Assembly (NCBI GenBank): GCA_964247135.1
Contig: CAXTTL010000097.1
Span: forward strand, 1 to 16,950
Direction of reading: 5' to 3'
DNA from: an uncultured Deinococcales bacterium
Lineage (GTDB): Bacteria; Deinococcota; Deinococci; Deinococcales; JAAFIG01
Length of the DNA stretch: 16,950 bases
Positions 1,565 through 16,950 of this stretch are shown here, piece after piece (position 1 is the stretch's first letter; each line of letters begins with the position of its first letter). The notes under the pieces were generated by a model. It did no database searches. It was not told the origin of the DNA and was given only the letters and a program-made list of their open reading frames with translations. The position numbers and the translations under genes were made by a program.

Positions 1565-2134
1565 ATGGCAGCCATACTCGAGAAAAAAAGTTCTGTCAGT
1601 GAATACCTCGAGCTTGAAAAGCATTCAGAGGTTCGCCACGAATTTGTTGATGGCGAGATTCAGGCAATGGCAGGAGAAAAGCGCGTTCACAACCGTTTGG
1701 CGCGGCGGTTTGTGTTGCTACTCGAGGCATTGGCGGACAGCAAAAACTGTGAGATTGTGATCGAAAGCGTCAAAATCCGAACCCGAGGCACACGCATTCG
1801 TTACCCCGATATTGCCGTTTCCTGCACCCCAGGCACGGACGAATACTTTCTCGAAAATCCATGTTTTATTGCCGAGGTTCTCTCGAGCACGACTGAAAAA
1901 ACCGATTTAACCCTGAAATTAGACGAGTACAAAAACCTGCCCAGTTTGGAACGCTATGCACTGGTGGCTCAAGATCGGCGTTTTGTGGTGTTGTACAAAC
2001 GCGTTTTGGACCACTGGGAAGTGGTCACGCTCGAGGATCAAGGCGAAATTGATTTGCCTTGTCTTGGGACAACTTTGACGCTCGAGCAAATTTACGCGGG
2101 CATCAGCATTGAACCCAAAACCGAAGAAACTTAA
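1565..2134 (+). CDS. Uma2 (DUF820) family PD-(D/E)XK endonuclease-fold protein
   Basis: Typical motifs EYLELE..SEVRHEFVDGEIQAMAG...H, RYPDIAV, PCFIAEVLSSTT..D...KLDEY..LPSLERYALV. Confidence 0.9.
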   Translation: MAAILEKKSSVSEYLELEKHSEVRHEFVDGEIQAMAGEKRVHNRLARRFVLLLEALADSKNCEIVIESVKIRTRGTRIRYPDIAVSCTPGTDEYFLENPCFIAEVLSSTTEKTDLTLKLDEYKNLPSLERYALVAQDRRFVVLYKRVLDHWEVVTLEDQGEIDLPCLGTTLTLEQIYAGISIEPKTEET

Positions 2135-3051
2135 ATTTTCTTTCTTTTGCTCTGCCCGACCACTTCAATCACATACCCCATTACGGCAGGCTTGTGGGTT
2201 CTGACCACATCCTCGAGCACATCGAGCGGCACAATCTCGTTTGGCGGCGGGTTGATCTTGACCCGAATCACAAAGGGGTTGTTCGGTTCATTGGTGATGG
2301 TCGCCACAAAACCCGTGGAAAGTTCAATAAACTTTTCCAGACCATAGTTTGTGCCGCGCCAACGGTACAAATCCATTGCCTCGTGAAGCAAAGCCCGACG
2401 GCGCGATTCGGGGTAATGGAGCGCCACGGGCAAACCCAACCAACCCGCCAACCACTCGAGCATTCCGGTCGGTGCGGTGCGCGGGTCAAAGTACATCTCG
2501 AGCGAATTTTGCCGCCACTCGAGCGGCTCCCAGATGGTTTCAAAAATCCGCAAAAACCGGTCGATAAAATCGTGCTCGTGAAACATGGCGGGAAGGTACT
2601 GCAAATAACCCGATTGTCCGACCACCATTGGAACAATTTCTTTCACCCGAGGCGGTTTGATCGGTAAGGACGGAACGGGGTCGGCTTCGATCACCACACT
2701 CTCAACTTCTGTCACCTTGGTTTCGAGTTGTGCGCTGGTGCTCGAGCCACCACCCAGCAGTTGGTAGGTCAGCACGAACGGACCAATTTGAATCGGCGTT
2801 CCGACGGGCAGCGGGTAGGGCTGTCCTGGCAGCAGGCGGTTGCCCGCGATATACGTTCCCTTTTCGGAATTGAGGTCAACGATCACCAAACCCGTTTCGG
2901 TTTGTTGAATTTCGGCATGGCGTTTTGAAACCCCTGGCAGCGCCAACGCGAGGTCGTTTTCTGGAATGCGCCCAATGGTCAGGTTGCCGTCCACGGGTTT
3001 AACGTGGACATCCTGCCCTTGGTATTGAACAATGATTTGACCTTTAGCCAC
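2131..3051 (-). CDS. FHA domain fused to a P2 gpI-like phage tail/baseplate wedge domain (CIS baseplate component), ~306 aa
   Basis: Start re-assigned to GTG3051, with SD AAGGAG at 3056-3061; the longer start at 3096 lies inside a repeat. FHA motifs IGR...VSKRHA...DLNSEKGT, then a Pro/Glu/Val-rich linker. C-terminal YLQYLPAMF..DFIDRFLRIFE..YFDPRTAP..LEWLAGWLG..LYRWRGT..HKPA matches the tail-protein-I family that follows baseplate J genes. Confidence 0.88.
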   Translation of the reverse strand: MAKGQIIVQYQGQDVHVKPVDGNLTIGRIPENDLALALPGVSKRHAEIQQTETGLVIVDLNSEKGTYIAGNRLLPGQPYPLPVGTPIQIGPFVLTYQLLGGGSSTSAQLETKVTEVESVVIEADPVPSLPIKPPRVKEIVPMVVGQSGYLQYLPAMFHEHDFIDRFLRIFETIWEPLEWRQNSLEMYFDPRTAPTGMLEWLAGWLGLPVALHYPESRRRALLHEAMDLYRWRGTNYGLEKFIELSTGFVATITNEPNNPFVIRVKINPPPNEIVPLDVLEDVVRTHKPAVMGYVIEVVGQSKRKKI

Positions 3052-3064
3052 GGTGCTCCTTGGT

Positions 3065-3122
3065 GGGCGCATATCTTCTTGACCAAAAAAACGCACCTAT
3101 CGGGCTTGGTCGCCATGCGCCC
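3065..3122. repeat. Degenerate REP-like hairpin with the conserved structured insert (copy 2)
   Basis: Perfect 8-bp outer stem GGGCGCAT (3065-3072)/ATGCGCCC (3115-3122) enclosing TCTTGACCA-AAAAAAC-GCACC-TATC-GGGC-T-TGGTCGC (3077-3113). Confidence 0.75.
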
Positions 3123-3143
3123 TTATCCATTCGCTACAACATC

Positions 3144-5165
3144 TTATGTGTCCATGTCTTGCCGTGTCGTCACCCGAATTCGGTGCGTGTTCGAGCAGAG
3201 CAGCACGCCCCTTGGGACGGTTAAAAAACTGGGAATCGGGCGCGGCGGTTCGTTCGAGCCGATTTCACTGACACCAACCTTGAGTTCCTCGACAAATTCG
3301 ACGTATTGAATCCGTTGCAGCAAAGCAAACAATTCCGATTGTTGAAGATCGCGCCCGAATGCCCAACCGGTTCCTTTTGGACCACCGACGTAAGGGTTTA
3401 AAAATCGGTACAGCGCTTTTTCGGCTTCCAGTTGAACACTTGCTGCCATTGCCGCATCAAAACCTTCTGGCACGCGAAGTTTACCCTCGATAGACACCCA
3501 GATCAATTGCGGTCCTCGAACCTCGAGGGTCGTACCGACCAGTTTGCGCCCCTCGAGTTGCGCCAGCACATCGGCGCGGGTTTCGGCGGAGAGGGTCATG
3601 GCTTCGACCGGAATTGACCCCGAAGCGTAATCGGTGCTGGGCAGCACGATCAGTGCCACCTGCCCTGGTTTGGGATCGCCTGGTTTGGGGTTGGTTTGAC
3701 TGCCCGGCGCGAGACAGTACGCCCTGGCAACGCCTGGGACTTGTTGCGCCAAATGCTCGTAATCGTCGCTCGAGACGGCGCGGGTGCGGGTGCGCAAGGT
3801 TTGTGGGGCTTTGGTTTTGGCATCCTCCAAACTTTGCGGGTTGCGTCCCCCGACGGCGGCTTGGCGGTTGACCACCCTGGCGACGTAAGGGATGCTGGAC
3901 TTTAAAACGCTGAGCGCCCCTTTTGGCACGTTGCCCATGACGCCACCGCCGTATTGATACCTCGAGAATCTCAAGCTTGCGCCCTTGGCTGGTATCTGCC
4001 CGAAAGTGTAAACCGTGCCGTCTGGTTGCGGCAGGGTCGCGCCAAAGCGGATGCTGCCGTCCAAACTGTCCAAACTGTAATGCTTGTCGCCGCGTTTGGA
4101 ATCGGCAAAATCGGCAACCTCAGACCAAGCCTCGGGTTCTGACCCAATCGCTTCGACCATTAAAGCGTCGCGGGTCGCGTCTCGAGCCAAAATCGGTGAG
4201 TGCAGCAAATTAAATTTTTGTCCTGGCGTGCCCTCACTGATGCCAACGTACTCGTCGGTCACGGTCACGGCGTGACGGGCGTTGGCGGTTCCGCCCCTTG
4301 CCTCGAGTTTGATGGCTTCAATTTCTGGCGAGACGCCGTAACGCAGTGTGCCAGCTTGGTCGCCCGTCAACCGCACCCGCAACCAGTAACTTGAAATGTT
4401 TTGCAAAGCGCGTTGCTGCATGGCTGGCACGTGCAAAATCACCTCGCCGGACATGTTAAAACCGCCCGTGCCGTCAAATTCGACCTCGCAGGGTTGCCAG
4501 GTGCGCACCGGACCTTGCCAGACTTCCCAAACCAGCGGCGGGTTGGTCGGGTCGATGCCCGCGCCGCCGGCAGTTTCACACTCGAGGATGATGGCAAGCA
4601 CATGGTTGCTGTGATCGGTTTCGAGCGAGAGGTAAAACGCGTCGTTTGGGTTTGGTTGCAGCGGAAACAAACGCAATTTGTTACCAGGCAGCTCGAGCTG
4701 CGAAAGTTCATGCACCACCCAGGGCGCGTCGCGTCCGAGCGTGGCGTCTCGAGAGAACGCGCCGAGCAAAACGGGTGGCGTGATGGTCAGGGCTTGTTCG
4801 GTCGAAAAAATAATGGCGGGACTGGTTTCGGTGCGAACCGTGGCGACCTCGCTGGCTTCGGGCAAGATTAATGGCACGGTTTGGCTCTGCGAGAGGTAAA
4901 AGGTGACCGGTACGGTGGCGGCTTGCGGAGGCTCGAGCCTCACACCGATCATTTCGAGAAATTTGACGTACATTTTGTCTGGCACTTGGTTGACGCGGTA
5001 CAAGAGCATGTCGGTCATCCAGGCGAACAGTTCGATCAGTGCCACGCCAGGGTCGGAGACGTTGTGATCCGTCCACTCTGGGCAGTATTGCGGAATCAAG
5101 CGTTTGGCTTGATCGACAATGTCTTGAAATTTTCGGTCATCCAGGTTGGTGGTTGGTAAGGACAT
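3144..5165 (-). CDS. Baseplate J/gp6-like wedge protein (Afp11/Pvc11-like), ~673 aa
   Basis: N-terminus MSLPTTNLDDRKFQDIV..IPQYCPEWTDHNVSDPGVALIELFAW; also YQYGGGVMGNV, AVGGRNPQSLE..RTRTRAVSSDDYE and GWAFGR. ATG5165 is preceded by GAGGT. Confidence 0.93.
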   Translation of the reverse strand: MSLPTTNLDDRKFQDIVDQAKRLIPQYCPEWTDHNVSDPGVALIELFAWMTDMLLYRVNQVPDKMYVKFLEMIGVRLEPPQAATVPVTFYLSQSQTVPLILPEASEVATVRTETSPAIIFSTEQALTITPPVLLGAFSRDATLGRDAPWVVHELSQLELPGNKLRLFPLQPNPNDAFYLSLETDHSNHVLAIILECETAGGAGIDPTNPPLVWEVWQGPVRTWQPCEVEFDGTGGFNMSGEVILHVPAMQQRALQNISSYWLRVRLTGDQAGTLRYGVSPEIEAIKLEARGGTANARHAVTVTDEYVGISEGTPGQKFNLLHSPILARDATRDALMVEAIGSEPEAWSEVADFADSKRGDKHYSLDSLDGSIRFGATLPQPDGTVYTFGQIPAKGASLRFSRYQYGGGVMGNVPKGALSVLKSSIPYVARVVNRQAAVGGRNPQSLEDAKTKAPQTLRTRTRAVSSDDYEHLAQQVPGVARAYCLAPGSQTNPKPGDPKPGQVALIVLPSTDYASGSIPVEAMTLSAETRADVLAQLEGRKLVGTTLEVRGPQLIWVSIEGKLRVPEGFDAAMAASVQLEAEKALYRFLNPYVGGPKGTGWAFGRDLQQSELFALLQRIQYVEFVEELKVGVSEIGSNEPPRPIPSFLTVPRGVLLCSNTHRIRVTTRQDMDT

Positions 5166-5230
5166 GAACACCTCGAGCGAGAAGGGATTGCGGGAATCAC
5201 CAGAAAATTAAATCTTTGTTTTTGGTTTTT

Positions 5231-5294
5231 GTAGGGGCGAACCTTCTTGACCATATTCTTGCACCTAGCGGGCATGGTCGCTCGTGTTCACCCT
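5231..5294. repeat. GTAG-type REP hairpin with the conserved structured insert (copy 3)
   Basis: GTAGGGGCGAAC...GTTCACCCT arms (7/8 pairing) enclosing TCTTGACCA-TATTCTT-GCACC-TAGC-GGGC-A-TGGTCGC (5245-5281). Confidence 0.78.
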
Positions 5295-5405
5295 GGCTGA
5301 TATCGATCAGTCTTAAATTTCAATTTGGGATTTTGACTGTGGATTCTCGAGTTTTATTTTAAAAACCAAACGTTTCAATAGTTAAACATTTCAAAATTCA
5401 AGATT

Positions 5406-5813
5406 TCACTCGCCAGGAATTCGATAAAACGGAAAGACCAACGACCGCCTGTCGTGCGTGGCTTTGATTTCGTAACTGACTTCAATGTCCATTCGTTCGT
5501 TGTGCTCTGGGTCGGGGCGGGTATTGACCTCGAGCACCTCGATGCGCGGTTCCCAGAAACGCAGGGCATCTTCGACGTAATACGATGCCAGCCCCCAGGT
5601 GTTCGCGTCGTTGGGTGCAAAAATCAGTTCGTGGACTTGACAACCAAACTCTGGACGCATCACGCGTTGACCTTTGGGGGTTTGCAAAATCATCAGGATG
5701 GCTTGCTCGATGTCGGTCACGTGCCGCGCCAAACCGATGCGCCCCCTGGCGTCCACGCCGACCGGAAACGACCAGCCGACGCCCAAAAAATCTTTCATCG
5801 AATCTTCGTTCAT
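5406..5813 (-). CDS. gp25/GPW-like baseplate sheath-initiator (Afp9/Pvc9-like), ~135 aa
   Basis: Start re-assigned to ATG5813 (GGAGG 6 nt upstream). Motifs FLGVGWSFP, DIEQAILMILQTPKGQRVMRPEFGC, ALRFWEPRIEV, LVFPFY. Confidence 0.93.
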   Translation of the reverse strand: MNEDSMKDFLGVGWSFPVGVDARGRIGLARHVTDIEQAILMILQTPKGQRVMRPEFGCQVHELIFAPNDANTWGLASYYVEDALRFWEPRIEVLEVNTRPDPEHNERMDIEVSYEIKATHDRRSLVFPFYRIPGE

Positions 5814-5815
5814 GA

Positions 5816-6106
5816 TTAACCTCCAATGTCCACGGTCGGGCAGCAGGGCGGGGCAACGGTGGTCGAAAGTGGCACGCCAGTCACGGTGTTGACACCCGTC
5901 ACCATGCTGCCGACCCGAGCGGCAGGGCGACCGCCAATCAAAACCGTCATGCTGCCCAAGGTGATTGCGCCAGTACAAACGGGTCCGGCGACGGCATCAC
6001 CCACGCAGGCGGCGGGCATTCCGCCGATGATCACGGTCGGCGCACCAGGCGCGACAATCAAATCGCCAGTCACGGTCATGTCGGTCAGTCTTGCGGCAAA
6101 AGGCAT
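5816..6106 (-). CDS. PAAR-repeat spike tip protein (Afp10-like)
   Basis: Three PAAR-type motifs (FAAR, PAAC, PAAR), TV.IGG repeats, 96 aa, directly downstream of the spike gene. Confidence 0.92.
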   Translation of the reverse strand: MPFAARLTDMTVTGDLIVAPGAPTVIIGGMPAACVGDAVAGPVCTGAITLGSMTVLIGGRPAARVGSMVTGVNTVTGVPLSTTVAPPCCPTVDIGG

Positions 6107-6138
6107 AAAATATCCTGTCTCTCGAGAAACCCTCGAGT

Positions 6139-7833
6139 TTAGTTGATCTTGACAATTCCACCTTTGAGTTCGGACATCGCGCCACCGTCCATTTTGAGTC
6201 CGACGCTGCCTTTGATATCGACTTGCAAACCTTCAATTTTGACGCCCGTCTGTGCTTTAATTGAAATGTCTTGTTGTGATTCCAAACTGATTTTGCCTTT
6301 GGCAATGATTTTGGTTTCGCCCTCCATGCTGATTTTCATTTCGTTGCTGCTCGAGTCGATTTGCACCAAGTTGCTGCCCGTTTTGTCTTTGATGATAATT
6401 TTTTCGGCGCCGCTGGTGTCGTCCAGGATAATCACATGCCCCGAGCGCGACTTGATCATGCGTTTGTCTTTGGCGTCGCTGGCGGGTTGTGGCGGCGCGT
6501 CTTTGCCGTTCCAGAGGCTGCCGATCACATAGGGCTGGTTGACGTCGCCCTGCTCGAAAGCCACCAACACTTCATCATCAATTTCGGGCAGAAACTGAAA
6601 ACCTCGTTCTTTGCCAGCGCTGGGCGTGGCGATTCTTGCCCAGTAACTCGAGTCGTTGTCCGAATAGGCTGGGTATTTGACTTTGACTCGGTTCATGTTT
6701 TCGGGGTCTTGGTTGTCGGTTACAACTGCAACCGCAATGCTTGGCGGCACGCGGTACTCATGGTGGTCTGTGAGGCTCGAGAGCAATGAACTTGGGTTTT
6801 GACCGCTGACCGTAAAATGCGTGACATAACCCAGTTTTTGTTGAAAAATATGGGTTGCCGAGGTAATAAAATACTCGCCCGAGAAGCGTTCTCCAACCCT
6901 CGAGATTTTGACTTTTTGACCTGCCAGTATTTTTGGATCACCACCACAAGTTCCTTCGGCTTCTACAAAATGCCCAATCAAACGGTCAGCAACGGCTTTG
7001 GCAAGCACGGTGGCGGCGGCGGTATCGCGGGGCAGTGGTTCGTTGACCAGGTATGTGGCATTGATGTTATGCGCCGCTCGAGCAATTTGCGAACCCGTTT
7101 GATTGATCCCAATTTTCGGTGCGCCCTGCCCTTGGCTTTGTGTGGCGGTGATGACTTGTTTGTTTTTTGGATCCCAACCTCGCACATTGACTTCACTGAC
7201 CATGCCAACGGTGCTCAGGCGCGGGCGGAAATCGCCGAGGTTTTGATGCCATTGCAGTTCAACCTCGACGCTGCCAGAGGGCGGCGGTTCGCAGTGGATT
7301 TTGTCGCCTTCGGCGTACATAAAATAGCCGAGCGCCGCCGCGCGATCCCTTAAAAATTCAAAATTGCTTTGATTGGCTTGCAAAACGTGCTTGTGAATCA
7401 CGTTGGTTTCAGTCACTTTGGGTTGCAAACCTGCGCCCTCAATAATTTTTTTCATGATGTCAGAATCTTTGACATCGACATACGATTTGACAAAACGTCC
7501 ACGGGTTAAGCGGTGCATTTTATCAAACGCCCGAACCGTCAATTTCATGCCTTCGGGTTCAAAATGAGGCTCGAGTTCGACCAGTTCGCCTTCAAAAATT
7601 GTGGCTGGTCCTCCGCCAGATTCGGCTTGAATTTTGAGTTGCTTTCCTGGCATGACTTTGGCATGGTCAACCCATTTTAAATTTGGGTCATTGAGCACCA
7701 GCGTCGCCGTATCAGGCAGATGCAAACTCGATTCAATGGTGATAGACAGCAGATCGTCCTGCATTTCGCTGTCGAGCGCCCCATCAAAATACAGGTAAAA
7801 ATGACTTAAGTGCAGCGTCGAACCGCTAGGCAT
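6139..7833 (-). CDS. VgrG-like spike/hub protein (gp27-gp5; Afp8/Pvc8-like)
   Basis: Late-control-D-like N-terminal part (LQANQSNFEFLRDRAAALGY, VRGWDPKNKQ). gp5 OB-fold VTDNQDPENMNRVKVKYP..WARI..GFQFLPEIDDEVLVAFEQGD..PYVIGSLWNG. C-terminal beta-helix repeats ending GGIVKIN. Confidence 0.93.
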   Translation of the reverse strand: MPSGSTLHLSHFYLYFDGALDSEMQDDLLSITIESSLHLPDTATLVLNDPNLKWVDHAKVMPGKQLKIQAESGGGPATIFEGELVELEPHFEPEGMKLTVRAFDKMHRLTRGRFVKSYVDVKDSDIMKKIIEGAGLQPKVTETNVIHKHVLQANQSNFEFLRDRAAALGYFMYAEGDKIHCEPPPSGSVEVELQWHQNLGDFRPRLSTVGMVSEVNVRGWDPKNKQVITATQSQGQGAPKIGINQTGSQIARAAHNINATYLVNEPLPRDTAAATVLAKAVADRLIGHFVEAEGTCGGDPKILAGQKVKISRVGERFSGEYFITSATHIFQQKLGYVTHFTVSGQNPSSLLSSLTDHHEYRVPPSIAVAVVTDNQDPENMNRVKVKYPAYSDNDSSYWARIATPSAGKERGFQFLPEIDDEVLVAFEQGDVNQPYVIGSLWNGKDAPPQPASDAKDKRMIKSRSGHVIILDDTSGAEKIIIKDKTGSNLVQIDSSSNEMKISMEGETKIIAKGKISLESQQDISIKAQTGVKIEGLQVDIKGSVGLKMDGGAMSELKGGIVKIN

Positions 7834-8494
7834 TCGGAATCACCAGCACCGTTCCAGGCTGGAGCTTGCGGACATCCTCGAGTTTGTTCATGGCGGCAAT
7901 GCTGCGCCAAGCTTTGGTATCCCCAAGCGCACGGTGGGCAATCAGGCTTAACGTTTCGCCCTGTTGCACCGTCCAGATGCGCTCGCCGCCGTCACCCTGT
8001 GAGGTCGGATTAGTTGGCGGTTGGCTGGTTAAATCCCGAAGCTGCAACAATCCCACGGTCAGCTTTGCCCGTACTGGAATGCCGTCGCTTAAGAACATCG
8101 TAAAATTTTGCGAGACGCTTTGCACCACCGCCTCAAAATTCACGCCCTTGCCCCATTGAAACAGTATTTTACTTGGTCGCCCGACCTTGCTTTTGTTGTC
8201 TTTCAAACCGTCATCGACCATCATCAAATCCCAGATTTTTTTGGTGTGCTTGCGCACATCGCGGTCATCACCCGTTTTTTCGTAGGTGTCAAAGTACAAC
8301 TCGAGTTGCAAGGAGGCGGGTTCGCCGTTGGTGAACTTCATGGGCGGCACGTTTTTACCGCTGCTTTTGCCTTGCTCCCATTTGACGCTGCGCTGAATCG
8401 TGTACTCCTTGGGGTTGAACATGCAGTCAATGGAATTGTTTTTTTTCTGACCCTCAAGGATCGTGATTCTGGCTTTTTCGGGCGCTCCACTCAT
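7826..8494 (-). CDS. CIS tube initiator with C-terminal LysM domain (Afp7/Pvc7-like)
   Basis: CMFNPKEYTI, LQLELYFDTYE, FTMFLSDGIPVRAKL; LysM TVQQGETLSLIAHRALGD..WRSIAAMN...LQPGTVLVIP. Overlaps the spike start by 8 nt. Confidence 0.9.
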   Translation of the reverse strand: MSGAPEKARITILEGQKKNNSIDCMFNPKEYTIQRSVKWEQGKSSGKNVPPMKFTNGEPASLQLELYFDTYEKTGDDRDVRKHTKKIWDLMMVDDGLKDNKSKVGRPSKILFQWGKGVNFEAVVQSVSQNFTMFLSDGIPVRAKLTVGLLQLRDLTSQPPTNPTSQGDGGERIWTVQQGETLSLIAHRALGDTKAWRSIAAMNKLEDVRKLQPGTVLVIPNA

Positions 8495-8508: not shown

Positions 8509-11241
8509 TTATCCCTCTCGGCGGCGTTCGCTCGAGAGTCTGCGTTTGAGAATGTCATAGACTTGTTGCGCCAACAAATCCATGTCTTGCGCGGGCGGGT
8601 GCGGTTGACCGCCCGCAGCCCCTGGTGGCTGATTGTCGGGGTTGTCCGATGGTCGATCTGACTCGGCAAGTTGCACCGCCGAACTCGAGGAATCCGCAAC
8701 AGACGTCAATCCTGTGCTGGTGCTGCTCGAGCCGACAGAACTTGGGGCGATCACGGTCACAAAGTCCGAGGTGTTGGTGTTCAAATTTGGCATGGCTTCC
8801 CACGGGGCTGGCAGTCCATTCCAAGCATCGGTATTTCTTGTTGCATTGCTTGGCGCGGTCGGAGCGGTGCTGGTCTGCCGTGCACTTGCCGCCTCGAGCG
8901 GAATTCCTGGCACGAACATGCTGGCGGTATTGGTGACTCGAGCTTCGACGGCACGCGCTTGGGTTTCAAAAGATTCACCCGTAAAGTCTTGTTGATTGTT
9001 TGTATTTTGCAACATCGGCGGCACAAAATCGGGTTGCAAATTTTGCCCAACGTGCGTTAACTCGTGTGCCAGCAAGCCCAGACCCTCGGCTGATTGCTCA
9101 TCAAAACCATTGTTCAGGTAAACGTCTGTTGCGACCGTCGCGCCGTCGGCGTTCAAGCTCGAGGTGAATTCGCTGGCGCGAGGTCCGACAAAAACCCTGG
9201 CTTGATTGGGATCAAAACCAATCAGCGGCGCAAGGAAGGTGCGGGTGCTTTCGAGCAATTGAACGGGTTGCGTGCCTTGCTGCACGAACTCGCTGGCGGC
9301 TCGGGTTTGGGTTTGACCCAGTTGCTGCCCCACTTTTAAATCTGGCGAACTGGTATCTACTTCGCTCGAGGTTATGGTGGTTGGTGTCTCCGAATACCTT
9401 CGTGCGAGTCGCTGGGCAACATCTGAGATCGATTGGAATTTTGGCGCTGGCGTTTGTTCGGTTACATCGACTTCAACCTGCTGGGAAAACGCGTTGGTGC
9501 TGGGGTCAAAACGGGTTTGTTCAGTCCCGCCAAAACGCTGTTGCAACGATTTCATGCGCTCACTAAGGTTTTGCTTGGGTCGAACCACATTCTCTGGAGT
9601 TTGCGAAACTCGAACCTCGGGCGTTTGCGGTTTCGCAGTTTCCTCTCGAGGTTCGGTTGGTTTCTCGAGTCTTTCGGATTGATGTTTCCGTGGCGGTTTG
9701 GCGCGAATAATTTCAACCACGCCGCTTTGCGGGTCGCCTGGAATTGAACGTTGCCAATCGCTTTGTTCTGGCGTGGCGGGTAGCGCAGGGATTGACTCGC
9801 TTTGAGATTCGGTTCGTATTTCTCGAGCCACAGACTCTGGCTGTAATTCTCGAGGTGCAGCTTCTTGCGTCACGTCTCGAGTTGCAGCTTCTTGCGATAT
9901 CTCTCGAGCCTCAAATTCTTGTTGTGATTCCAGAGCCACAGGTTCTTGCTGTGATTCTCGAGCTAAAGATTTTTGTGGCGTCTCTCGGCTGACAGATTCT
10001 TGCAGTGGTTGACTGACTTCTTGAGATTCAATTTTTGCAATTTCAGAGGTTGTTTCTCGAGGTGCAACATCTGAACTTTGATTTTGGGCAACTCGAGTCT
10101 CCTCTACCGTCGCCTCTCGAGTCTCGATTTTGGGTGTCGATTGTTCCATGACTGATTCAAATCTCGAGGTTGGAACTTCGGCAGGTATAGGAAATTCAGC
10201 ACTGACCCGAGGCGTTTCAATTGCCTCCCGAGCGACCAATGCTGGTTCAGATGGAAGTTCAGTTTGCTGTTCCGAGCTTGCATTTTCGTTTGACTCGAGT
10301 GCGGGTGTCGTTTGATTTCCAGTCTCTCGTAAAACAGTTGGCTCGAGTGGGTTCTTAGATTTCGCTGCGGTTTTTTCTGCTTCAGCAGGAGCTTTGCTTG
10401 AGCTTGGCTCTATGGCTCGAGCTGGGGTCAAAGGTTGGTTTTGATTTGATTGTGGGTTCTGAATTTTTTCTGACCGCATCAATTGTTGTTCAACATTTGA
10501 ACTGTTTATATCTTGAATAGTTTGTGTTTCAATAGATGTAATCAACTCGGCGGCAACTTCGCTTTGTTCCAGAACTCGAACTTCTTCAGGATTGATGACT
10601 TGTGAAATCGCCTCTTCATCCATCTCAACTCGAGGTGTTACAACACCATCAGGCACAACATTTGCGGTACTCGCTCGAGGTGAAACGTCAGGGGGTGCCG
10701 TTTCACCCGAGCGCACGGACGGCGCGACAACAGGCTGAGATTCTGGTGTCGCAGAGGACTCGCGGCGTTCAAGGATTTCTTTGGTACGCGCAGGCTCAAG
10801 TTTGGGTGATGCTTGAAACGTTGGTTCAATCGGCTCCAAATCCTCGAGTTGAGGCAACACTTCAACCGTTGATTCTTGAGCCTCCAAGCTCGAGTCTGCT
10901 TGAGTCTCAAGACTCAAGGCGTTTGAGGCAACAATACTCGAGTCTGTGACCATTGTTTCGAGTATTGGCTCGGTCACTTCAAATGAACGTTCTGTTTCAA
11001 AAGCCAGCCCAGGATTTCTGACAGCTCGAGCATTTCGTGGTTGAACTTTTGCGTCCCTAGGGACTTGCACGGCTCGAGCACGGTTTGGTTCAATCTTTTT
11101 GGGGGTCAATCCAAGTGCCCTCAAACTGGGGGCGTCGGTCATTCGCCAGGTCAAGGCATGGTGTTTTGCAAACACGCTGCGCATAAAATCGCGGCGGGCT
11201 TCGAGGCGTTGTCTGATGCGATTGACGAGGGCGCTACTCAT
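8509..11241 (-). CDS. 910-aa CIS-associated protein: long E/S/T/P/Q-rich low-complexity region, DUF4157 (eCIS core)-like HExxH domain, and C-terminal helix
   Basis: Segment ~9030-9270 (TRTFLAPLIGFDPNQARVFVG..ASEFTSSLNADGATVATDVYL..GLLAHELTHVGQ) resembles DUF4157. It sits in-operon between the tube and LysM genes. Function is not determinable from sequence. Confidence 0.78.
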   Translation of the reverse strand: MSSALVNRIRQRLEARRDFMRSVFAKHHALTWRMTDAPSLRALGLTPKKIEPNRARAVQVPRDAKVQPRNARAVRNPGLAFETERSFEVTEPILETMVTDSSIVASNALSLETQADSSLEAQESTVEVLPQLEDLEPIEPTFQASPKLEPARTKEILERRESSATPESQPVVAPSVRSGETAPPDVSPRASTANVVPDGVVTPRVEMDEEAISQVINPEEVRVLEQSEVAAELITSIETQTIQDINSSNVEQQLMRSEKIQNPQSNQNQPLTPARAIEPSSSKAPAEAEKTAAKSKNPLEPTVLRETGNQTTPALESNENASSEQQTELPSEPALVAREAIETPRVSAEFPIPAEVPTSRFESVMEQSTPKIETREATVEETRVAQNQSSDVAPRETTSEIAKIESQEVSQPLQESVSRETPQKSLARESQQEPVALESQQEFEAREISQEAATRDVTQEAAPRELQPESVAREIRTESQSESIPALPATPEQSDWQRSIPGDPQSGVVEIIRAKPPRKHQSERLEKPTEPREETAKPQTPEVRVSQTPENVVRPKQNLSERMKSLQQRFGGTEQTRFDPSTNAFSQQVEVDVTEQTPAPKFQSISDVAQRLARRYSETPTTITSSEVDTSSPDLKVGQQLGQTQTRAASEFVQQGTQPVQLLESTRTFLAPLIGFDPNQARVFVGPRASEFTSSLNADGATVATDVYLNNGFDEQSAEGLGLLAHELTHVGQNLQPDFVPPMLQNTNNQQDFTGESFETQARAVEARVTNTASMFVPGIPLEAASARQTSTAPTAPSNATRNTDAWNGLPAPWEAMPNLNTNTSDFVTVIAPSSVGSSSTSTGLTSVADSSSSAVQLAESDRPSDNPDNQPPGAAGGQPHPPAQDMDLLAQQVYDILKRRLSSERRREG
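9814..10002 (-). repeat. Intragenic tandem repeat, 7 x 27 bp (9 aa; QExxARExx)
   Basis: CTCGAG or a variant at 9822, 9849, 9876, 9903, 9930 (CCAGAG), 9957 and 9984 (CTCGGC). Peptide QESVSRETP/QKSLARESQ/QEPVALESQ/QEFEAREIS/QEAATRDVT/QEAAPRELQ/PESVAREIR. Confidence 0.85.
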
Positions 11242-11257: not shown

Positions 11258-11680
11258 TTACGAGGCGAGCTGCATTCCACGGTGGACAAATTCAAACGTT
11301 TCGATTGCCGAGGTATTGCCGCTGGCTTGATATTGCGCGCCAGTCCATTTGATTGGCACGGCTTCCAGGAAATTCCAGCGCTGTACAGGGTTGCCCTCCA
11401 GGTCATACATCACCACCGAAATATTTTTGCGCTCAATTTTGCCTTGCGAAACGTCCATCACCCATTTCAAAAAGTCTTGTGATTTGGTCATGCCCTGCTT
11501 CAGGGTGATGTTTCCAATTTTGCTGCGTCCAATAAATTTGTGAACGTATTCGTTGTTGCCACCTTCATTGAAATCTTCGGTGGTGACTTCAACCGACAAG
11601 CCACTGACTTCGGTAAAGACAGCCTCTTTTTTGCTGTCAATCTCGACGTAAAATCGGTTATTGCCGTACACTTCATCCAT
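11258..11680 (-). CDS. T4 gp19-like tail tube protein, second copy (Afp5-like)
   Basis: RFYVEID..FTEVSGL..EGGNN..NITLKQG..RKNISVVMYD..RWNFLEAVPIKWTG..AIETFEFVH. SD-like AAGGTG upstream. Confidence 0.93.
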   Translation of the reverse strand: MDEVYGNNRFYVEIDSKKEAVFTEVSGLSVEVTTEDFNEGGNNEYVHKFIGRSKIGNITLKQGMTKSQDFLKWVMDVSQGKIERKNISVVMYDLEGNPVQRWNFLEAVPIKWTGAQYQASGNTSAIETFEFVHRGMQLAS

Positions 11681-11686
11681 TGGGCT

Positions 11687-11833
11687 TCACCTTTGCTTTG
11701 ATCCAGACCGCCGTGTGTTCTGACCTCTGGCTTTTTGCAATCGAATATCCTCGAGCATCAGTTTGTAGACTTTTTGCGCCAGGGTTTCAACATCCACGGC
11801 ATTTGGTTTTGAAGCTGGGGCATCTTCAGGCAT
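11687..11833 (-). CDS. Unannotated 48-aa protein resembling the C-terminal helix of the 910-aa protein
   Basis: Manual translation: MPEDAPASKPNAVDVETLAQKVYKLMLEDIRLQKARGQNTRRSGSKQR*. AGGA lies 7 nt upstream. It fills the gap between neighbouring genes (3 nt and 6 nt spacers) and is below the ORF-track length cutoff. Confidence 0.8.
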   Translation of the reverse strand: MPEDAPASKPNAVDVETLAQKVYKLMLEDIRLQKARGQNTRRSGSKQR

Positions 11834-11836
11834 GGG

Positions 11837-12205
11837 TTATTCCTGTTCGGCTTTGGCTTGAGAGAGGTCGAGGGCGAAACGGGTCGCACAGTTGGGGCAC
11901 TGGGTTTCTATAATGTTACCCGAGTCGTTCACGCGCAAATACATGTCTTGAAGGTAGGAATAATCGCTGGCGAATAAGTCTTCTATGATTTCGGGAGTGA
12001 TCGTCGCCAACGTTCCGAGTTTGGTCACGACCCTGGCGAGCATCAGCAAACCCAAGTACAATTCGTTGGTTTTCACCCGTGCGTCGTTCAGTGGTTCGAT
12101 TTCGTCTCTGGCGGTGGCAAGCCGCATGGTGCCCTGGCGGTGCAAATTGCCTTCGGGATCAACGTAACCCCTGGGCAGTAAAAACTCGAATTCGGTTTGC
12201 AACAT
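11837..12205 (-). CDS. Conserved CIS protein, putative tail assembly chaperone with C-terminal CxxC, ~122 aa
   Basis: MLQTEFEFLLPRGYVDPEGNLHRQGTMRLATARDEI..IEDLFASDYSYLQDMY..CPNC. It lies directly after the major tube gene, the usual chaperone position. Start re-assigned to ATG12205 (AAGGT upstream). The chaperone role is inferred from synteny. Confidence 0.72.
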   Translation of the reverse strand: MLQTEFEFLLPRGYVDPEGNLHRQGTMRLATARDEIEPLNDARVKTNELYLGLLMLARVVTKLGTLATITPEIIEDLFASDYSYLQDMYLRVNDSGNIIETQCPNCATRFALDLSQAKAEQE

Positions 12206-12243
12206 GAAATACCTTGTCAATCAAGAAAACTCGCGCCATGATG

Positions 12244-12312
12244 CTCGAGAATTCGCCCCACAAAAACCTGTTTCTCTCTCGAGGAAAGTCGGTTCTTGCG
12301 GGGCTTCTCGAG
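12244..12312 (-). other. Long intergenic mRNA hairpin downstream of the major tube gene
   Basis: On the - strand GCCCCGCAAGAACC pairs with GGUUUUUGUGGGGC (14 bp, two G.U). It is extended by CUCGAGAA/UUCUCGAG at the base and capped by CUC-GAGA-GAG. Confidence 0.7.
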
Positions 12313-12317
12313 GTTGC

Positions 12318-12764
12318 TTATTTGGTGCGGGTCATGCCGGTGTGCTGAATCGTCAGGCTTTCAACCGAGATTTCGTTGGATTTGGCATCGAGTTGTGGGA
12401 AGCCGAGCTTGGATGGCCAAGCCTCTTTGATTTCCCAACGGGCGACTTCATTGTGCTCTTGGTCGTAAGCCACCAGCGAACCCGTCACCCTGGCTTCTTT
12501 GATTTTGCCCTCTTCGACTTTTTTAAACCAATCCCAAAGCGCCATGCTGTCGGTCAGACCGCGTTTTAACTCGAGCGCCGTGTGCTTAAAATTGCCTGGA
12601 ATGGCGCGTTGAATCACGAAACCTTTTTCGCCGACCTCTTTGGTCATGATGGTTTCGACCTCGCCGCCACCACCCGAGACGCTCTGAAACCAACCTTCTC
12701 GTCCTCCACCAAAATCAACACCAAACATTGCTGCATTGATTGGGTCTTTTGCGGTATCCGCCAT
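12318..12764 (-). CDS. T4 gp19-like major tail tube protein (Afp1-like)
   Basis: DP..AMFGVDF..FQSVSG..IPG..LELKRGLTDSMALWDW..GSLVAYD..ARWEIKEAWPSK..ISVESLTIQH. SD AAGGAG. Follows the sheath gene. Confidence 0.93.
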   Translation of the reverse strand: MADTAKDPINAAMFGVDFGGGREGWFQSVSGGGGEVETIMTKEVGEKGFVIQRAIPGNFKHTALELKRGLTDSMALWDWFKKVEEGKIKEARVTGSLVAYDQEHNEVARWEIKEAWPSKLGFPQLDAKSNEISVESLTIQHTGMTRTK

Positions 12765-12814
12765 AAACTGCTCCTTTCAAAAACTGCGCTTGATTTGTTC
12801 TCGAGAATTGCCGA

Positions 12815-14383
12815 TTAAACGTTGGTGCTTTCAGAATATTGTTGGAAACGGTAGATCACAAACTCGGCTGGTTTGACTGGCGCAATGCCAATTTCGACCA
12901 CCAATTGACCCCGATCTCGAACGTCTTGGGGGTTGAGTTCGGCGTCGCATTTGACAAAAAACGCCTGTGCAGTGGTCGTGCCAAACAATGCGCCGTCGCG
13001 CCAGGTGCCGGTCAAGAAGGCACGAATGTCGCGCTTGAGGCGCTCCCAAGTGTTGAGATCGTTCGGTTCAAACACGACCCATTGCGTGCCGCGTTCAATC
13101 GATTTTTCGACGTAATTGAACAGACGGCGCACGTTGATGTAACGCCATTGTGGGTCGCTCGAGAGGGTACGGGCGCCCCAGACGCGCACGCCCATGCCCG
13201 TAAAGCTGCGAATGCAGTTGATGCCGCTCGGATTGAGGGTGTCTTGTTCGCCTTTGGTGACTTGAATCACAGGTTCGAGCACACCACGGGCGATTTCGTT
13301 GGCTGGAGCTTTCCAGACGCCGCGCTCGGCATCGGTACGCGCCCAAACGCCCGCCATGTGACCGCTCGGTGGAATGGCAATCGGGCGTCCGGTGAGTGGA
13401 TCGTCGACCTTGACCCAAGGGTAATACAGCGCGGCGGCTTTGGAATCAAAGTTGGACTCGCGTTCGCGCCATTTTTTAACGTCTTGCGGTGATAAATCTG
13501 GCAGTGGGTCAAGGATTGCCATACGTCCACCGACGCGTTCGCAGTGGTTCATCATGGCAAGCTGCACGGCTTTGACGCCGTCCTTGTCGATCATGCCCTG
13601 CTGGTATGCCGCCATTAAATCTGGGGCGCAGAGCATGGTCACATCTTCGGCAACCTCGAGTCCTTCAAGACCAGAACGGTCTGAGACATCGCCGACGAAA
13701 TGGCTGGATTGCACCATCGGCATGGCGGTCATCTGGTTGGCTTTGATGACGTATGTGCCGACTTCTGGAGCACGTTCGGCGAGGCTGCCGGCGGTTTTTT
13801 CTTCAGTTATGGTAATGATCTGGCTGGCGGCGACGGCTTCGGCGAGCGGCTTGGATTTTGCGCCCTTGCCACCCTTGCCCAAAATCACGTTATCAAAGGT
13901 TTCTTCGCTGCCACCCATCTTGATCTTTAAAGTGAATGCGCCCTCGTCGCTGTCCTCGGCGGGTGGACGGGTCACTTCGACCTGAATGTCGCTCGAGGCT
14001 GAACCTTTGGCGGTGATGGTGATGCTCGGAATGGCTTTTGAAGCGCGGCTCGGAAGTTGTGCGCTGGCAGCAGCATCGTCCTTTTTGCCGCTGGTTGGCA
14101 CAACCCGGGTGACGTAACAACGTGTGCCGCCGTTGTTGAAATAACCGTAAATCGAGTGTGCCAGGTACGAGCCGCTCATGTAAGGATTGCGTTTTCCGCC
14201 CTCCTCGAGCGTGCCGAAAGTGTCGACGTACTGCGACCAACTGGTGATGAGCATTGGTTTGTTGGCGGGACCGCTCGGGGCGAAACCAACGAATGCCGCC
14301 ATTGCCGTGCCAACGCCCTCAATGGGACGCGGACCTGCATTGACCTCTTCAACGTAAATTCCTGGCGATAAATACTCGGGCAT
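12815..14383 (-). CDS. Contractile tail sheath protein (gp18 / Afp2-4-like)
   Basis: MPEYLSPGIYVEEV..RPIEGVGTAMAAFVG, YGYFNNGG.RCY, AALYYPW, PPSGHMAGVWARTD..RGVWKAPAN, LNPSGINCIRSF..VWGARTLS..WRYINVRR, VFEPND, GIAPVKPAEFV. SD AAGGAG at 14388-14393. Confidence 0.97.
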   Translation of the reverse strand: MPEYLSPGIYVEEVNAGPRPIEGVGTAMAAFVGFAPSGPANKPMLITSWSQYVDTFGTLEEGGKRNPYMSGSYLAHSIYGYFNNGGTRCYVTRVVPTSGKKDDAAASAQLPSRASKAIPSITITAKGSASSDIQVEVTRPPAEDSDEGAFTLKIKMGGSEETFDNVILGKGGKGAKSKPLAEAVAASQIITITEEKTAGSLAERAPEVGTYVIKANQMTAMPMVQSSHFVGDVSDRSGLEGLEVAEDVTMLCAPDLMAAYQQGMIDKDGVKAVQLAMMNHCERVGGRMAILDPLPDLSPQDVKKWRERESNFDSKAAALYYPWVKVDDPLTGRPIAIPPSGHMAGVWARTDAERGVWKAPANEIARGVLEPVIQVTKGEQDTLNPSGINCIRSFTGMGVRVWGARTLSSDPQWRYINVRRLFNYVEKSIERGTQWVVFEPNDLNTWERLKRDIRAFLTGTWRDGALFGTTTAQAFFVKCDAELNPQDVRDRGQLVVEIGIAPVKPAEFVIYRFQQYSESTNV

Positions 14384-15009
14384 ACGACTCCTTTCTCTCT
14401 TTCCTGCATGAATTGAAAATACAATTTTGGATATAAAATTCTAACCACTTTTGACTCGAGCTTGCAGCTCTCACCTGAAGAATTTGCGTTTCGTCACCTT
14501 GAAAAGTAAAAAATAGAAGATTTAAAGAACTGGTGTTTTTGATTCACAAAACAATGGCAACGCCAAAGGTTGCCAAACAACCATTTAGAATGTGAGACGA
14601 TTTCCCTACAGGCTCGAGTTTACACGAGAACACCAACAACCCCTCGAAATGTCAAACTTATTTCGTTTGGAACGCGCAATTTTTGGATTGTTAAAATTTG
14701 GGCTTTAAAACACGTCCTCGATTGATCCTGGTTAAATTGTTAACGAAAAATCCTGAGCCAGACGGCATTTTTGTTTTGTTAAACCCATTTTATACGTCAA
14801 ACGCATAAGATAGAGCCAGGACTTAAAACTCGAGTTGATTTGACCTGATTGACTTCAAAATTGACTTCAACCGCGCCTCTCGAGCAATTCCCAAACCTGA
14901 TCTGGTGCATTCAAAGCGACTAGACTGTTAAAGTGAAAACAAAAACGTTGCGCTTGAACCTGTCAATGTAAATACCGCATCACAAGCGGCGGCAAACAAG
15001 GGGTAGCAA
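14384..15009. promoter_or_regulatory. AT-rich divergent control region between the CIS operon and the kinase gene
   Basis: 626 bp with no ORF in the track, between divergent starts. Contains TGGCAAC-N7-GTTGCCA (14555-14575), TTATACGT-CAA-ACGCATAA (14790-14808) and direct repeat ATTGACTTCAA x2 (14848-14870). Exact promoters not located. Confidence 0.6.
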
Positions 15010-16950
15010 ATGAACGATTTGGTGGGCAAAACATTAGGTCATTACCGACTCGAGGGCGAACTTCGCACCGGCAGCACTGGGCAAATGTTCCGAGGGGTTG
15101 ACACCCTCAATTCCCGCCCGGTGGCGATCAAGGTCTTACAATCCAACGGTTTGGTCGGCAATTTAAGACAAGAATTTATCGGTAAAATTCGTCAACTTGG
15201 GGCGTTAAAGCACCCACACATCGTCGAGGTTTTTGAAATTGGCGAAGAGAACGACAATGTTTTCTTGGCGATGGAATTTATTTCCGGCGGGTCACTCTCC
15301 ACCCTCTTGCAACGCAACACCCGCGCCAACACCCTGCTCGAGTTGCCCGTGGCATTGGGCTTGATGTACCAAGCCGCCGATGCGCTCTCATATGCCCATA
15401 AAAACGGCGTGATTCACGGCGACCTGAACCCAGAGAACATGCTGGTCAACTCGCAATCTGGCACAGGCTCGAGGGCTTATAATTTAAAGGTTGGCGATTT
15501 TGGGCTTTCAAAACTGAGCGCCGACCGCGCCATGTCGTTTGATGACCTGGTGATCGGCTCACCAGCCTACATGTCGCCAGAGCAATGCCAAGGTTTGGCG
15601 CTGACCGCCGCCTCGGATTTGTACTCGCTGGGCATCGTAATTTACGAAACCCTGACCACCGTTTTACCCTTTGAAGTCAAAAACCTCGGCGAAGCCGCGA
15701 TCAAGCACCTGTACTCCGCGCCACGCTCCCCCAGGGAAATCCGTCCCGAGATTCCGGAGGAACTCGAGGGGCTGATCATGCGCCTGCTCGCCAAAAACCC
15801 CAATGACCGTTACGCCAGCACCGACGAGGTTCGTGACGCCTTGCAGGGCATCCTCGAGCGCATCGAACCCCAAGGTCCAACGCCCACGCTGGTCTTGCCC
15901 GATGTCGGCAGCGAACCCAAACCGCCAAACATTGCCGCGCTGCCAGACACGTCCGAGTCAACGCGCATTACTTTGGCAGACCAATCGGGAAGAATTATCA
16001 AAGTCTTGACCGTACCCAGTGAAGGTTTACGCTTTGGGCGCACCGATCAAAACGACGTGCAACTCGATTCGGAAATGGTCTCAAGGTATCATTTACGCAT
16101 CGACACCCAAGCGCAACGCATCGTCGTGACCGACCTCGGCTCGAGCAACGGCACGATGATGGACGGTCAAAAGCTTGACGTGCAAAAACCCACCGCCTGG
16201 GCGTTTCGCAGCATCTTGCACGTCGGTCCGTTCTGGTTACGCCTTGACGCGCCCACCGCCGCCAGCGCCAAAAACGTGATTGGACTGGTCTTAAACGAAG
16301 ACAAACTGACCGTCGCGCCAGGGCAGGTTGGCGTCTTGCGCGTGACGGTGGGCAACATGGGGCGCATCGTCGATCACTTTACGTTTTCTGCCGACGGCAT
16401 TCCCGCAACTTGGTTGCATGGTCCCGAAAACCCAGTGCAACTCAACCCAGGTTCGCAAGCCCCAGTCGCGTTATCGATTGTCGTGCCGCGCTCGAGCGAA
16501 GCCGTGAGCGGCACCCGAAGCGTGACGATTCGCGCCCACTCGAGGGAATTTCCCGAAGCCCTGGCAACCTCGAAGGTGGCATTGACGGTACTGCCGTTTG
16601 CCATGAGCAGCCTGAGTTTAAAACCCAACAAACGCACCGTCAGGCGCAGCACCCAGTTTGTGGCAACCCTCAAAAACCAGGGCAATACCGCTCTGGATTA
16701 TTACCTGCAGACCGAAGAGGAAGAACCGCGCCTCAAATTTCATTTCTCCGAACCGGTTGTGGCGCTCGAGCCAGGTCAAAGCCGCGATGTGATTTTAAAA
16801 ACCACCGCGCCCTTAAGGATTCTGGGCGCAGCCCAACAGCGACCGTTCACCCTTTCGGCTCGAGCCAGCGGCAGCCACAAAAACCTGCCCGACGATGCCC
16901 AGACCGAAAATAAAACGGGATTGAACGCCAGAGAAATGCTGGTGAACGCC
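15010..16950 (+). CDS. Hanks-type Ser/Thr protein kinase(-like) - FHA - tandem Ig-like beta-sandwich protein, 3'-truncated by the window (>647 aa)
   Basis: Manual translation from ATG15010 (AAGGGG upstream) has no stop to the window end. Kinase: MNDLVGKTLGHYRL..VAIKVL..LKHPHIV..AMEFISGGSL..IHGDLNPENML..KVGDFGL..GSPAYMSPEQ..SDLYSLG..LLAKNPNDRY. FHA ~16030-16245: FGR..VSRYHL..DLGSSNGT. Then LTVAPGQ..VTVGNMGRIVDHF..VQLNPG and LKNQGNT..VALEPGQ. Confidence 0.92.
   Translation, partial: MNDLVGKTLGHYRLEGELRTGSTGQMFRGVDTLNSRPVAIKVLQSNGLVGNLRQEFIGKIRQLGALKHPHIVEVFEIGEENDNVFLAMEFISGGSLSTLLQRNTRANTLLELPVALGLMYQAADALSYAHKNGVIHGDLNPENMLVNSQSGTGSRAYNLKVGDFGLSKLSADRAMSFDDLVIGSPAYMSPEQCQGLALTAASDLYSLGIVIYETLTTVLPFEVKNLGEAAIKHLYSAPRSPREIRPEIPEELEGLIMRLLAKNPNDRYASTDEVRDALQGILERIEPQGPTPTLVLPDVGSEPKPPNIAALPDTSESTRITLADQSGRIIKVLTVPSEGLRFGRTDQNDVQLDSEMVSRYHLRIDTQAQRIVVTDLGSSNGTMMDGQKLDVQKPTAWAFRSILHVGPFWLRLDAPTAASAKNVIGLVLNEDKLTVAPGQVGVLRVTVGNMGRIVDHFTFSADGIPATWLHGPENPVQLNPGSQAPVALSIVVPRSSEAVSGTRSVTIRAHSREFPEALATSKVALTVLPFAMSSLSLKPNKRTVRRSTQFVATLKNQGNTALDYYLQTEEEEPRLKFHFSEPVVALEPGQSRDVILKTTAPLRILGAAQQRPFTLSARASGSHKNLPDDAQTENKTGLNAREMLVNA

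Follow-up and report, generated by a model that had tools for sequence, protein, structure and literature searches.

The window analysed here is a stretch of 16,950 nucleotides from an uncultured Deinococcales bacterium. It spans an entire contig; the genome is fragmented (386 contigs, 5.09 Mb, 84% complete), and its closest relatives in the species genome collection are Deinococcales bins. The map of open reading frames (ORFs) and Pfam scans identified a tight operon of a contractile injection system (CIS) on the minus strand (14383-2131), with the sheath gene first and, as the last gene, a fusion of an FHA domain with a gpI-like (Tail_P2_I) baseplate subunit. The gene divergent from the sheath encodes a Ser/Thr kinase fold followed by an FHA domain of its own. 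Both architectures had been suggested by the sequence-only reading of this DNA and were recovered by the domain scans, the fusion also by a structural model. The features of this pair and of the region next to the kinase gene are as follows.

2131-3096, minus strand: cis12, the FHA-Tail_P2_I fusion, baseplate wedge subunit (Pfam, profile match to 9gtp_E, AlphaFold2 model)
2758-3042, minus strand: FHA domain of Cis12, residues 19-113 (R43, S57 and H60 present; loop S77-E78-K79-G-T)
2623-2751, minus strand: flexible linker of Cis12, residues 116-158 (predicted local distance difference test score, pLDDT, 37-66)
2161-2619, minus strand: gpI-like (Cis12) core domain, residues 160-312 (Pfam, profile, AlphaFold2, Foldseek)
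12815-14383, minus strand: cis2, sheath (Pfam; full-length match to the 8bky/9gtp sheath)
14384-15009, no strand: divergent intergenic region between sheath and kinase genes, 626 bp (identity with the corresponding region of a sister genome, about 85%)
15010-16950, plus strand: gene of the predicted membrane kinase-FHA-Ig protein, N-terminal 647 aa (Pfam; runs off the contig end)
15046-15822, plus strand: kinase domain, residues 13-271 (Pkinase E 2.8e-43)
16030-16191, plus strand: FHA domain of the kinase protein, residues 341-394 (Pfam E 2e-13)
about 16282-16869, plus strand: two Ig-like domains of the kinase protein

The Cis12 fusion matches FHA (PF00498, E 2.8e-17, residues 40-105) and Tail_P2_I (PF09684, E 2.1e-11, residues 181-282). 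The longest ORF encodes 321 aa, and homologues suggest a start a few codons inward. The AlphaFold2 model, made with 44 homologues, contains an FHA beta-sandwich (pLDDT 93-97) and a gpI-like domain (pLDDT about 90), joined by the low-confidence linker. The predicted template-modelling (TM) score of the whole model is 0.45, and thus no fixed orientation of the two domains is predicted. Foldseek matched the model to FHA domains of the GarA/OdhI type (TM score 0.82-0.89 on the target) and to Cis12 of the Streptomyces coelicolor CIS baseplate 9gtp. The profile of the 44 homologues aligned with the latter protein (9gtp_E, 190 aa) at E 4.8e-25 by profile positions 154-301 only. Since only the C-terminal half of the family profile is involved, the solved Cis12 has no FHA domain. 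The FHA domain of the window protein is thus modelled as tethered to the wedge subunit by a flexible linker of about 45 residues.

In the homologue alignment the linker is gapped and variable in both length and sequence. Among five Cis12 orthologues from the clade of the window, identity is 96-99% in the FHA domain, 91-95% in the gpI domain and 63-81% in the linker, which means that the FHA domain is maintained and not decaying. The arginine, serine and histidine of the FHA binding loops have roles known from the FHA literature. All three are present in the window protein, and among the 44 homologues R43 and H60 are invariant and S57 is found in at least 90%.

The fusion is widespread. We collected the best 80 of 116 relatives confirmed in the species genome collection, and Cis12 carries the FHA domain in all 80 of these loci, which span Deinococcota, Chloroflexota, Thermomicrobiota, Gemmatimonadota, Acidobacteriota, Methylomirabilota, Rhodothermota and Armatimonadota. 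Both domains were also found in 75 of 82 homologues from protein databases, and for three of the remaining seven the gene call seems to have been truncated; the label of at least one database record of a homologue begins 'FHA domain c…'. Within Deinococcota, the gpI domain was matched in 63 of 364 genomes, and each of the 55 strong matches (E <= 2.3e-36) falls within an open frame of at least 298 aa. The FHA-Cis12 fusion therefore marks a CIS lineage that extends over many phyla.

The kinase gene is linked to cis12 in most of this lineage. Mapping of the 80 loci with the proteins of the window placed a same-strand kinase gene downstream of cis12 in 70. In 61 it directly abuts cis12, the predicted start being at -525 to +208 bp from the cis12 stop codon, and in 33 the start overlaps the stop by 4 nt, as judged from longest-ORF calls. 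The remaining nine of the 70 have an intervening gene, which in five is a kinase-less FHA-Ig paralogue. Such paralogues, with a predicted transmembrane segment, were observed between cis12 and the kinase gene in some Chloroflexota (L011:5060-8725, L020:1231-5625, L026:6893-11151, L053, L061:10849-13725). In loci of the Roseiflexus type (L058, L060, L066), kinase-FHA-Ig genes form tandem arrays of up to three. No downstream kinase was seen in ten loci: five from the window clade, two with at most 238 bp of downstream sequence, two where an FHA-Ig paralogue runs off the contig, and locus L059, considered below.

In the window clade the kinase gene is conserved at the other end of the operon, divergent from the sheath gene. 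Two sister genomes have kinase orthologues (96-97% identical, 1441-1442 aa) on the contig of the CIS operon. In one of them the orthologue starts about 690 bp from the sheath gene and is followed by cis16, cis15 (AAA+), three genes of eCIS_core proteins and a second gene of a Pvc16_N protein. In the genome of the window, contig C23 opens with the remainder of the kinase gene and continues with cis16, cis15 and eCIS_core genes. In the canonical cluster, exemplified by Thermogemmatispora tikiterensis, all genes have the same orientation, in the order cis16, cis15, two eCIS_core genes, cis16b, the genes from sheath to cis12, and the kinase gene last. Thus the window clade has moved the kinase gene to the opposite end of the operon.

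The same pairing recurs in a second, paralogous CIS of the same genome. It is deeply diverged (38-64% identity) and again combines FHA-Cis12 with a kinase-FHA paralogue. Its genes are scattered (C10:30837-42762, C1:106281-115555, C100:163-1047, C221), and the kinase-FHA paralogue (at least 1318 aa) lies directly upstream of a 180-aa ORF, cis7 and vgrG.

The background of Pkinase matches in this genome is 14 in 5.09 Mb. Among 16 gpI loci of Deinococcota whose gpI protein lacks an FHA domain, none has a kinase-FHA-Ig gene and one has any kinase within 10 kb; these are weaker gpI matches from other tail or CIS classes, so that they control for phylum, not for lineage. A scan of the genome collection with an FHA-less protein of 188 aa (P0082) confirmed nothing that could serve as a control from the same lineage. 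Chance adjacency of the kinase and FHA-cis12 genes is excluded, and the association of FHA-gpI fusions with kinases, which the sequence-only reading had proposed to look for across loci, is strongly borne out.

That reading had treated the kinase as a neighbour of the operon. The linkage holds, and the reading is supported in part, but the protein is not merely a neighbour: in canonical clusters it occupies the slot of CisA or of a tail fibre, and it is predicted to cross the membrane. A hydrophobic helix directly follows the two Ig-like domains in 59 of 63 complete kinase ORFs; in an orthologue 96% identical to the window protein it lies at residues 757-789 of 1441. This position suggests a bitopic protein and not a soluble regulator, with a cytoplasmic part composed of the kinase, FHA and two Ig-like domains, a single transmembrane helix and a variable outer domain. 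In the window clade the outer part has Ig/PKD-like repeats and a Thr/Pro-rich stretch; elsewhere its folds differ, and none of these matches reaches a Pfam cut-off.

The FHA domain of the kinase protein is canonical in the window (R344, S358, H361 and N380, the latter in SSNGT) and in nearly all other copies. In seven Gemmatimonadota loci (L030, L048, L057, L068, L074, L075, L078) the kinase protein has no internal FHA domain and the FHA domain of Cis12 is kept. The catalytic residues are all present in most kinase copies of Chloroflexota and Thermomicrobiota and in some others. The window kinase retains the beta3 lysine K41, D138 (as HGD), N143 and DFG (D163).

FHA domains usually prefer pT-x-x-hydrophobic sites. 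In 12 of 13 copies from Deinococcota, a threonine with Leu, Phe or Trp at position +3 occurs about 20 residues past the kinase domain. In the window this is T293 (residues 293-296, 15886-15897), a candidate FHA docking site.

The window can be placed among known CIS. Its sheath matches the sheath of the S. coelicolor CIS (one sequence, shared by 8bky and 9gtp) at E 1.8e-164 over residues 1-518 and is far closer to it than to the sheaths of Anabaena, PVC, Afp or pyocins. The core set of subtype IId is present: Cis1, 2, 5, 7, 8, 9, PAAR, 11 and 12 are encoded in the window, and the Cis16 cap and Cis15 ATPase on contig C23. The window is thus the structural half of a type IId-like CIS of the Chloroflexota/Deinococcota lineage.

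Gaisin et al. (ISME J 2026, PMC12998442) placed this lineage in subtype IId beside Streptomyces. Their CIS from Roseiflexus, Thermogemmatispora, Calidithermus chliarophilus and Deinococcus aquatilis belong to the same lineage as the window, with gene sets that agree; the FHA-Cis12 loci include two from imaged species, C. chliarophilus (L016) and D. aquatilis (L069). The window clade differs from those clusters by its rearrangement, with the kinase gene divergent from the sheath. The words FHA, kinase, forkhead, phosphoryl and Cis12 are absent from the main text of PMC12998442, figures and supplements being outside this count.

No tail fibres were found in the Streptomyces CIS, and its wedge consists of two Cis11 and one Cis12 (PMC12237407). 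Its firing needs CisA, a bitopic membrane protein with the N-terminus inside and the C-terminus outside, encoded just after the baseplate genes (PMC12237407). In canonical loci of our lineage the kinase protein has the same slot and the same predicted topology. The sheaths can be aligned over nearly the full length, and the cores of Cis12 are homologous. The differences are that Streptomyces Cis12, at 190 aa, lacks the FHA domain, and that the cytoplasmic part of CisA is unstructured, with neither a kinase nor an FHA domain (neither word occurs in the text portions of PMC12237407), whereas here it consists of a kinase, an FHA domain and two Ig-like domains.

Control by threonine phosphorylation is known for another contractile machine. 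In type VI secretion systems (T6SS) a membrane kinase, together with an FHA protein and a phosphatase, controls assembly, and the phospho-mark recruits the FHA protein to membrane-proximal parts of the machine (PMC13584744). The T6SS pathway (PpkA/TagE, PppA/TagG, Fha1/TagH, and p-TssL-Fha of Agrobacterium) shares with our lineage a membrane Hanks kinase and an FHA reader within the cluster of a contractile machine. However, here FHA domains are fused to Cis12 and to the kinase instead of forming a free-standing Fha1/TagH, the kinase bears its own FHA and Ig-like domains, no PP2C gene lies in the cluster, and the machine is an extracellular-CIS-type IId particle, not a T6SS.

The thylakoid-anchored CIS of Anabaena (PMC8894136) is similar in that an additional Cis12 domain and an adjoining membrane-inserted protein occur together, and there they set the position of the particle. 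The Anabaena extension, however, is large, C-terminal and without FHA, and the anchor is a fibre-like Cis13 with a transmembrane helix, which acts constitutively (PMC8894136); the portions of that paper covered do not mention a kinase or FHA. A full-text search of the literature, figures and supplements excepted, found no description of an FHA/kinase module in CIS: FHA and kinases appeared only in papers on T6SS. Text look-ups in parts of the CIS papers PMC12210884, PMC8894136, PMC12237407 and PMC12998442 likewise found no description of the module.

Taken with the linkage across phyla, we consider it somewhat probable that in this lineage Cis12-FHA functions as a pair with the membrane kinase-FHA-Ig protein, coupling the free particle to the membrane on a signal. 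Should each wedge contain a single Cis12, like that of the Streptomyces CIS, six FHA modules would be tethered to the baseplate. The outer domain of the kinase protein might sense a cue at the envelope or surface; the kinase would then mark itself or the linker of Cis12 on threonine, the FHA modules would read these marks, and the baseplate would dock on the clustered membrane protein and be licensed to fire. Such a coupling would do the job of CisA in Streptomyces and of PpkA with Fha1 or TssL in T6SS, although the pair is a member of neither system. In its most specific form, this proposal makes the kinase-FHA-Ig protein the CisA equivalent of the lineage: the six baseplate FHA domains would read phosphothreonine on the clustered kinase and convert an envelope signal into docking and firing, with the Deinococcota drifting to a pseudokinase adaptor. 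We hold this full version to be plausible, if somewhat below an even chance. The analysis establishes the architectures, the linkage, the predicted topology and the kinship with the Streptomyces CIS; direct binding, dependence on phosphothreonine and an effect on docking or firing are what we infer.

Several observations weigh against such a phosphorylation-dependent coupling. All kinase copies of Deinococcota are degenerate to some degree. The window kinase has K59 in place of the alphaC glutamate (Glu in 48 of 72 aligned kinases), the alignment of this helix possibly being off by a turn (E55), and N140 in place of the catalytic-loop lysine (Lys in 60 of 72; HGDLNPEN). The FHA domain of the window Cis12 has no loop asparagine: the loop is S-[ED]-K-G-T in the window clade, S-E-K-G-T in the window itself, and E78-K79 stand where relatives have [ST]-N (S-[ST]-N-G-T). 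Since the window kinase lacks two residues of the catalytic core and this FHA domain lacks the loop asparagine, phospho-gating is less certain here than in the Chloroflexota relatives. The coupling in this organism may rely on weak or atypical activity, on another kinase, or on phospho-independent binding; a version that is weakly active or independent of phosphorylation has to be taken seriously. In locus L059, 10 kb downstream of cis12 contain no kinase gene, and the window kinase as a query had no match at E <= 1e-40 in that genome, a result that holds for this query and does not imply absence. Cryo-tomography of Roseiflexus, C. chliarophilus and D. aquatilis showed particles unattached in the cytoplasm (PMC12998442), and thus any docking must be conditional.

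The search for a phosphatase belongs with these points. The sequence-only reading had proposed to look for adjacent PP2C genes as well as kinases. No PP2C (PF13672) gene was found within 20 kb of the CIS in five of five genomes, the three PP2C genes of the window's own genome are on contigs other than the CIS contigs, and phmmer searches of the 80 loci with three PP2C seeds gave no hits, at limited sensitivity and for this phosphatase family only. This search gave no PP2C partner, and without one close to or within the clusters there is no obvious sign of a reversible switch.

The states of the two proteins appear correlated at first sight. In raw counts over 64 loci, a canonical kinase tends to go with a canonical Cis12-FHA (29/8/3/24, odds ratio 29, Fisher p 1.3e-7). 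Alanine replaces the phosphate-contacting serine of Cis12-FHA in 8 of the 27 loci whose kinase is degenerate and in none of the 37 with a canonical one. On the tree of the kinase protein, however, five independent pairs yielded, over random pairings, 0.7 in which the FHA state goes in the same direction, 0.0 in the other and 4.2 without difference; among the individual pairings listed, 9 of 200 went the opposite way. The tree of the gpI domain has only one independent pair on supported branches and thus no power. Co-degeneration was therefore rejected as proof that the kinase and Cis12-FHA are coupled, as the association fails the phylogenetic check. It is a clade-level pattern produced by few deep events, and is suggestive only. 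A co-fold of residues 1-647 of the window kinase with full-length Cis12 scored 0.00 against a mark of 0.32, and counts neither way for binding.

Other explanations of the pair differ in what they make of the degenerate residues and of the membrane span. In the window clade, the membrane protein may be a phospho-independent scaffold, a pseudokinase that binds Cis12-FHA, or uses its own FHA domain, constitutively as a fixed adaptor of the CisA kind. This would account for the loss of the alphaC glutamate and catalytic-loop lysine in the window kinase, for the loss of the catalytic Asp or the beta3 Lys in some kinases of the wider Deinococcota, for the loss of the loop asparagine of Cis12-FHA while the kinase fold and this FHA domain are strongly conserved, and for the occurrence of the serine-to-alanine change in Cis12-FHA only beside degenerate kinases. 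However, K41, D138, N143 and DFG of the kinase and R43, S57 and H60 of Cis12-FHA are all retained in the window, the internal FHA domain of the kinase protein is fully canonical, and any of the 13 other Pkinase proteins of the same genome could supply the mark. We regard a constitutive scaffold as rather unlikely. The degenerate kinases also bear on the possibility of an assembly checkpoint, in which the kinase marks a structural protein of the CIS, Cis12-FHA binds it to nucleate or complete the baseplate and sheath, and the membrane span only senses. The gene linkage fits this equally; the kinase/FHA pair of T6SS promotes assembly (PMC13584744), and the particles of the imaged relatives are not bound to the membrane (PMC12998442). 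Yet particles assemble in C. chliarophilus and D. aquatilis despite the loss of the catalytic Asp or beta3 Lys from their kinases, and the kinase gene sits at the cluster end in the slot of CisA or a fibre, and we judge a checkpoint of this kind unlikely.

The position of the gene can be read in two further ways. The kinase might be a general signalling gene that merely travels with the cluster, Cis12-FHA binding unrelated phosphoproteins, for instance of the envelope or division machinery, to place the particle. Binding between the kinase protein and Cis12 is indeed a prediction here, but adjacency in 70 of the 80 loci over eight phyla, the 4-nt overlaps in 33, the survival of the pairing through rearrangement and its recurrence in the deep paralogue, against none of the 16 FHA-less loci, make a travelling gene very improbable. 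That the protein belongs to a released extracellular particle, attached to Cis12 like a fibre and binding a receptor, is scarcely credible. One could cite for it the usual tail-fibre slot after cis12 and the variable C-terminal Ig/PKD-like repeats, themselves below Pfam cut-offs. A kinase and two FHA domains depend on ATP from the cytoplasm, the transmembrane helix splits the protein, and in this lineage the particles were observed within cells and underwent contraction when these lysed (PMC12998442).

For cytoplasmic CIS, CisA is the only factor known in the signal for membrane engagement and firing. Cytoplasmic CIS have been linked to stress-induced cell death in Streptomyces, and were recently observed in Chloroflexota of hot springs and in Deinococcota. 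Roseiflexus, the one member of our lineage checked for CisA, has no close cisA homologues, and its firing may therefore differ (PMC12998442). A functional pairing of Cis12-FHA with the membrane kinase nominates two conserved candidates for the control of firing, the FHA domain of the wedge subunit and the membrane kinase-FHA protein at the cluster end, and the catalytically intact versions of Chloroflexota and the degenerate ones of Deinococcota provide a natural contrast. If correct, it would extend threonine-phosphorylation control of contractile machines beyond T6SS, with a regulatory reader fused to a baseplate subunit, an arrangement that we did not find described in the literature searched.

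The remaining genes of the operon are the following.

3144-5171, minus strand: cis11 (Baseplate_J; gpJ), Pfam E 7.4e-13; adjoins cis12 across loci
5406-5978, minus strand: cis9 (gp25-like), Pfam GPW_gp25 E 1e-24
5816-6106, minus strand: PAAR spike tip, Pfam PAAR_motif E 5e-14
6139-7833, minus strand: cis8 (VgrG-like spike), Pfam Phage_base_V E 4.1e-28
7826-8494, minus strand: cis7 (tube initiator, CIS_tube and LysM), Pfam E 7e-33 and 2.6e-6
8509-11241, minus strand: 910-aa eCIS_core (DUF4157) protein, domain at residues 663-736, Pfam E 9e-15
11258-11680, minus strand: second gp19-like tube protein (Cis5/Cis1b-like), Pfam E 3.4e-42
11837-12220, minus strand: ORF of 127 aa flanked by the two tube genes, position conserved in most loci
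12318-12764, minus strand: cis1 (inner tube), Pfam E 1.3e-34

The longest ORF of cis9 overlaps the PAAR ORF, and the true start of cis9 is probably further in. The 127-aa ORF has sub-threshold Pfam matches to zinc ribbons only and no relative in the PDB. The 910-aa eCIS_core protein occupies the slot between the tube genes and cis7. Comparison with its paralogue and with other loci shows that conservation is limited to the C-terminal 270 or so aa, and a sequence search of the PDB gave no relative. It could be a tape measure or loaded cargo. Some eCIS_core proteins have enzyme-like parts, Lipase_3 and N-acetylmuramidase in one and OmpA in another (L084:4838-8134, on contig C10 of the same genome; L091:10249-16854). 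The enzyme-bearing proteins are likely cargo of the two CIS.

In the intergenic region between the sheath and kinase genes no sigma-70-like site was found, and two weak terminator-like hairpins were seen. An Rfam search of the whole window found no family. The flanking genes at positions 3-2134 on the plus strand are ordinary and also lie beside cis12 in sister genomes. They encode a histidine kinase (C-terminal part), a pseudouridine synthase of the RluA type and a protein of the Uma2 family.

The window is also rich in the palindrome CTCGAG, with 100 sites in 16,950 bases against 3.25 expected from shuffled sequences (for example at 14455, 14613, 14829 and 14879). The whole genome contains 33,925 sites, or 6.7 per kb, which is 25 times the expectation from base composition. 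CTCGAG is by far the top hexamer of the genome, occurs on every contig and is distributed equally across the three codon frames. It resembles highly iterated palindromes such as HIP1. Its density is 3-6.5 per kb in loci of related Deinococcales and Calidithermus, and 0-0.4 in those of Deinococcus and Chloroflexota.

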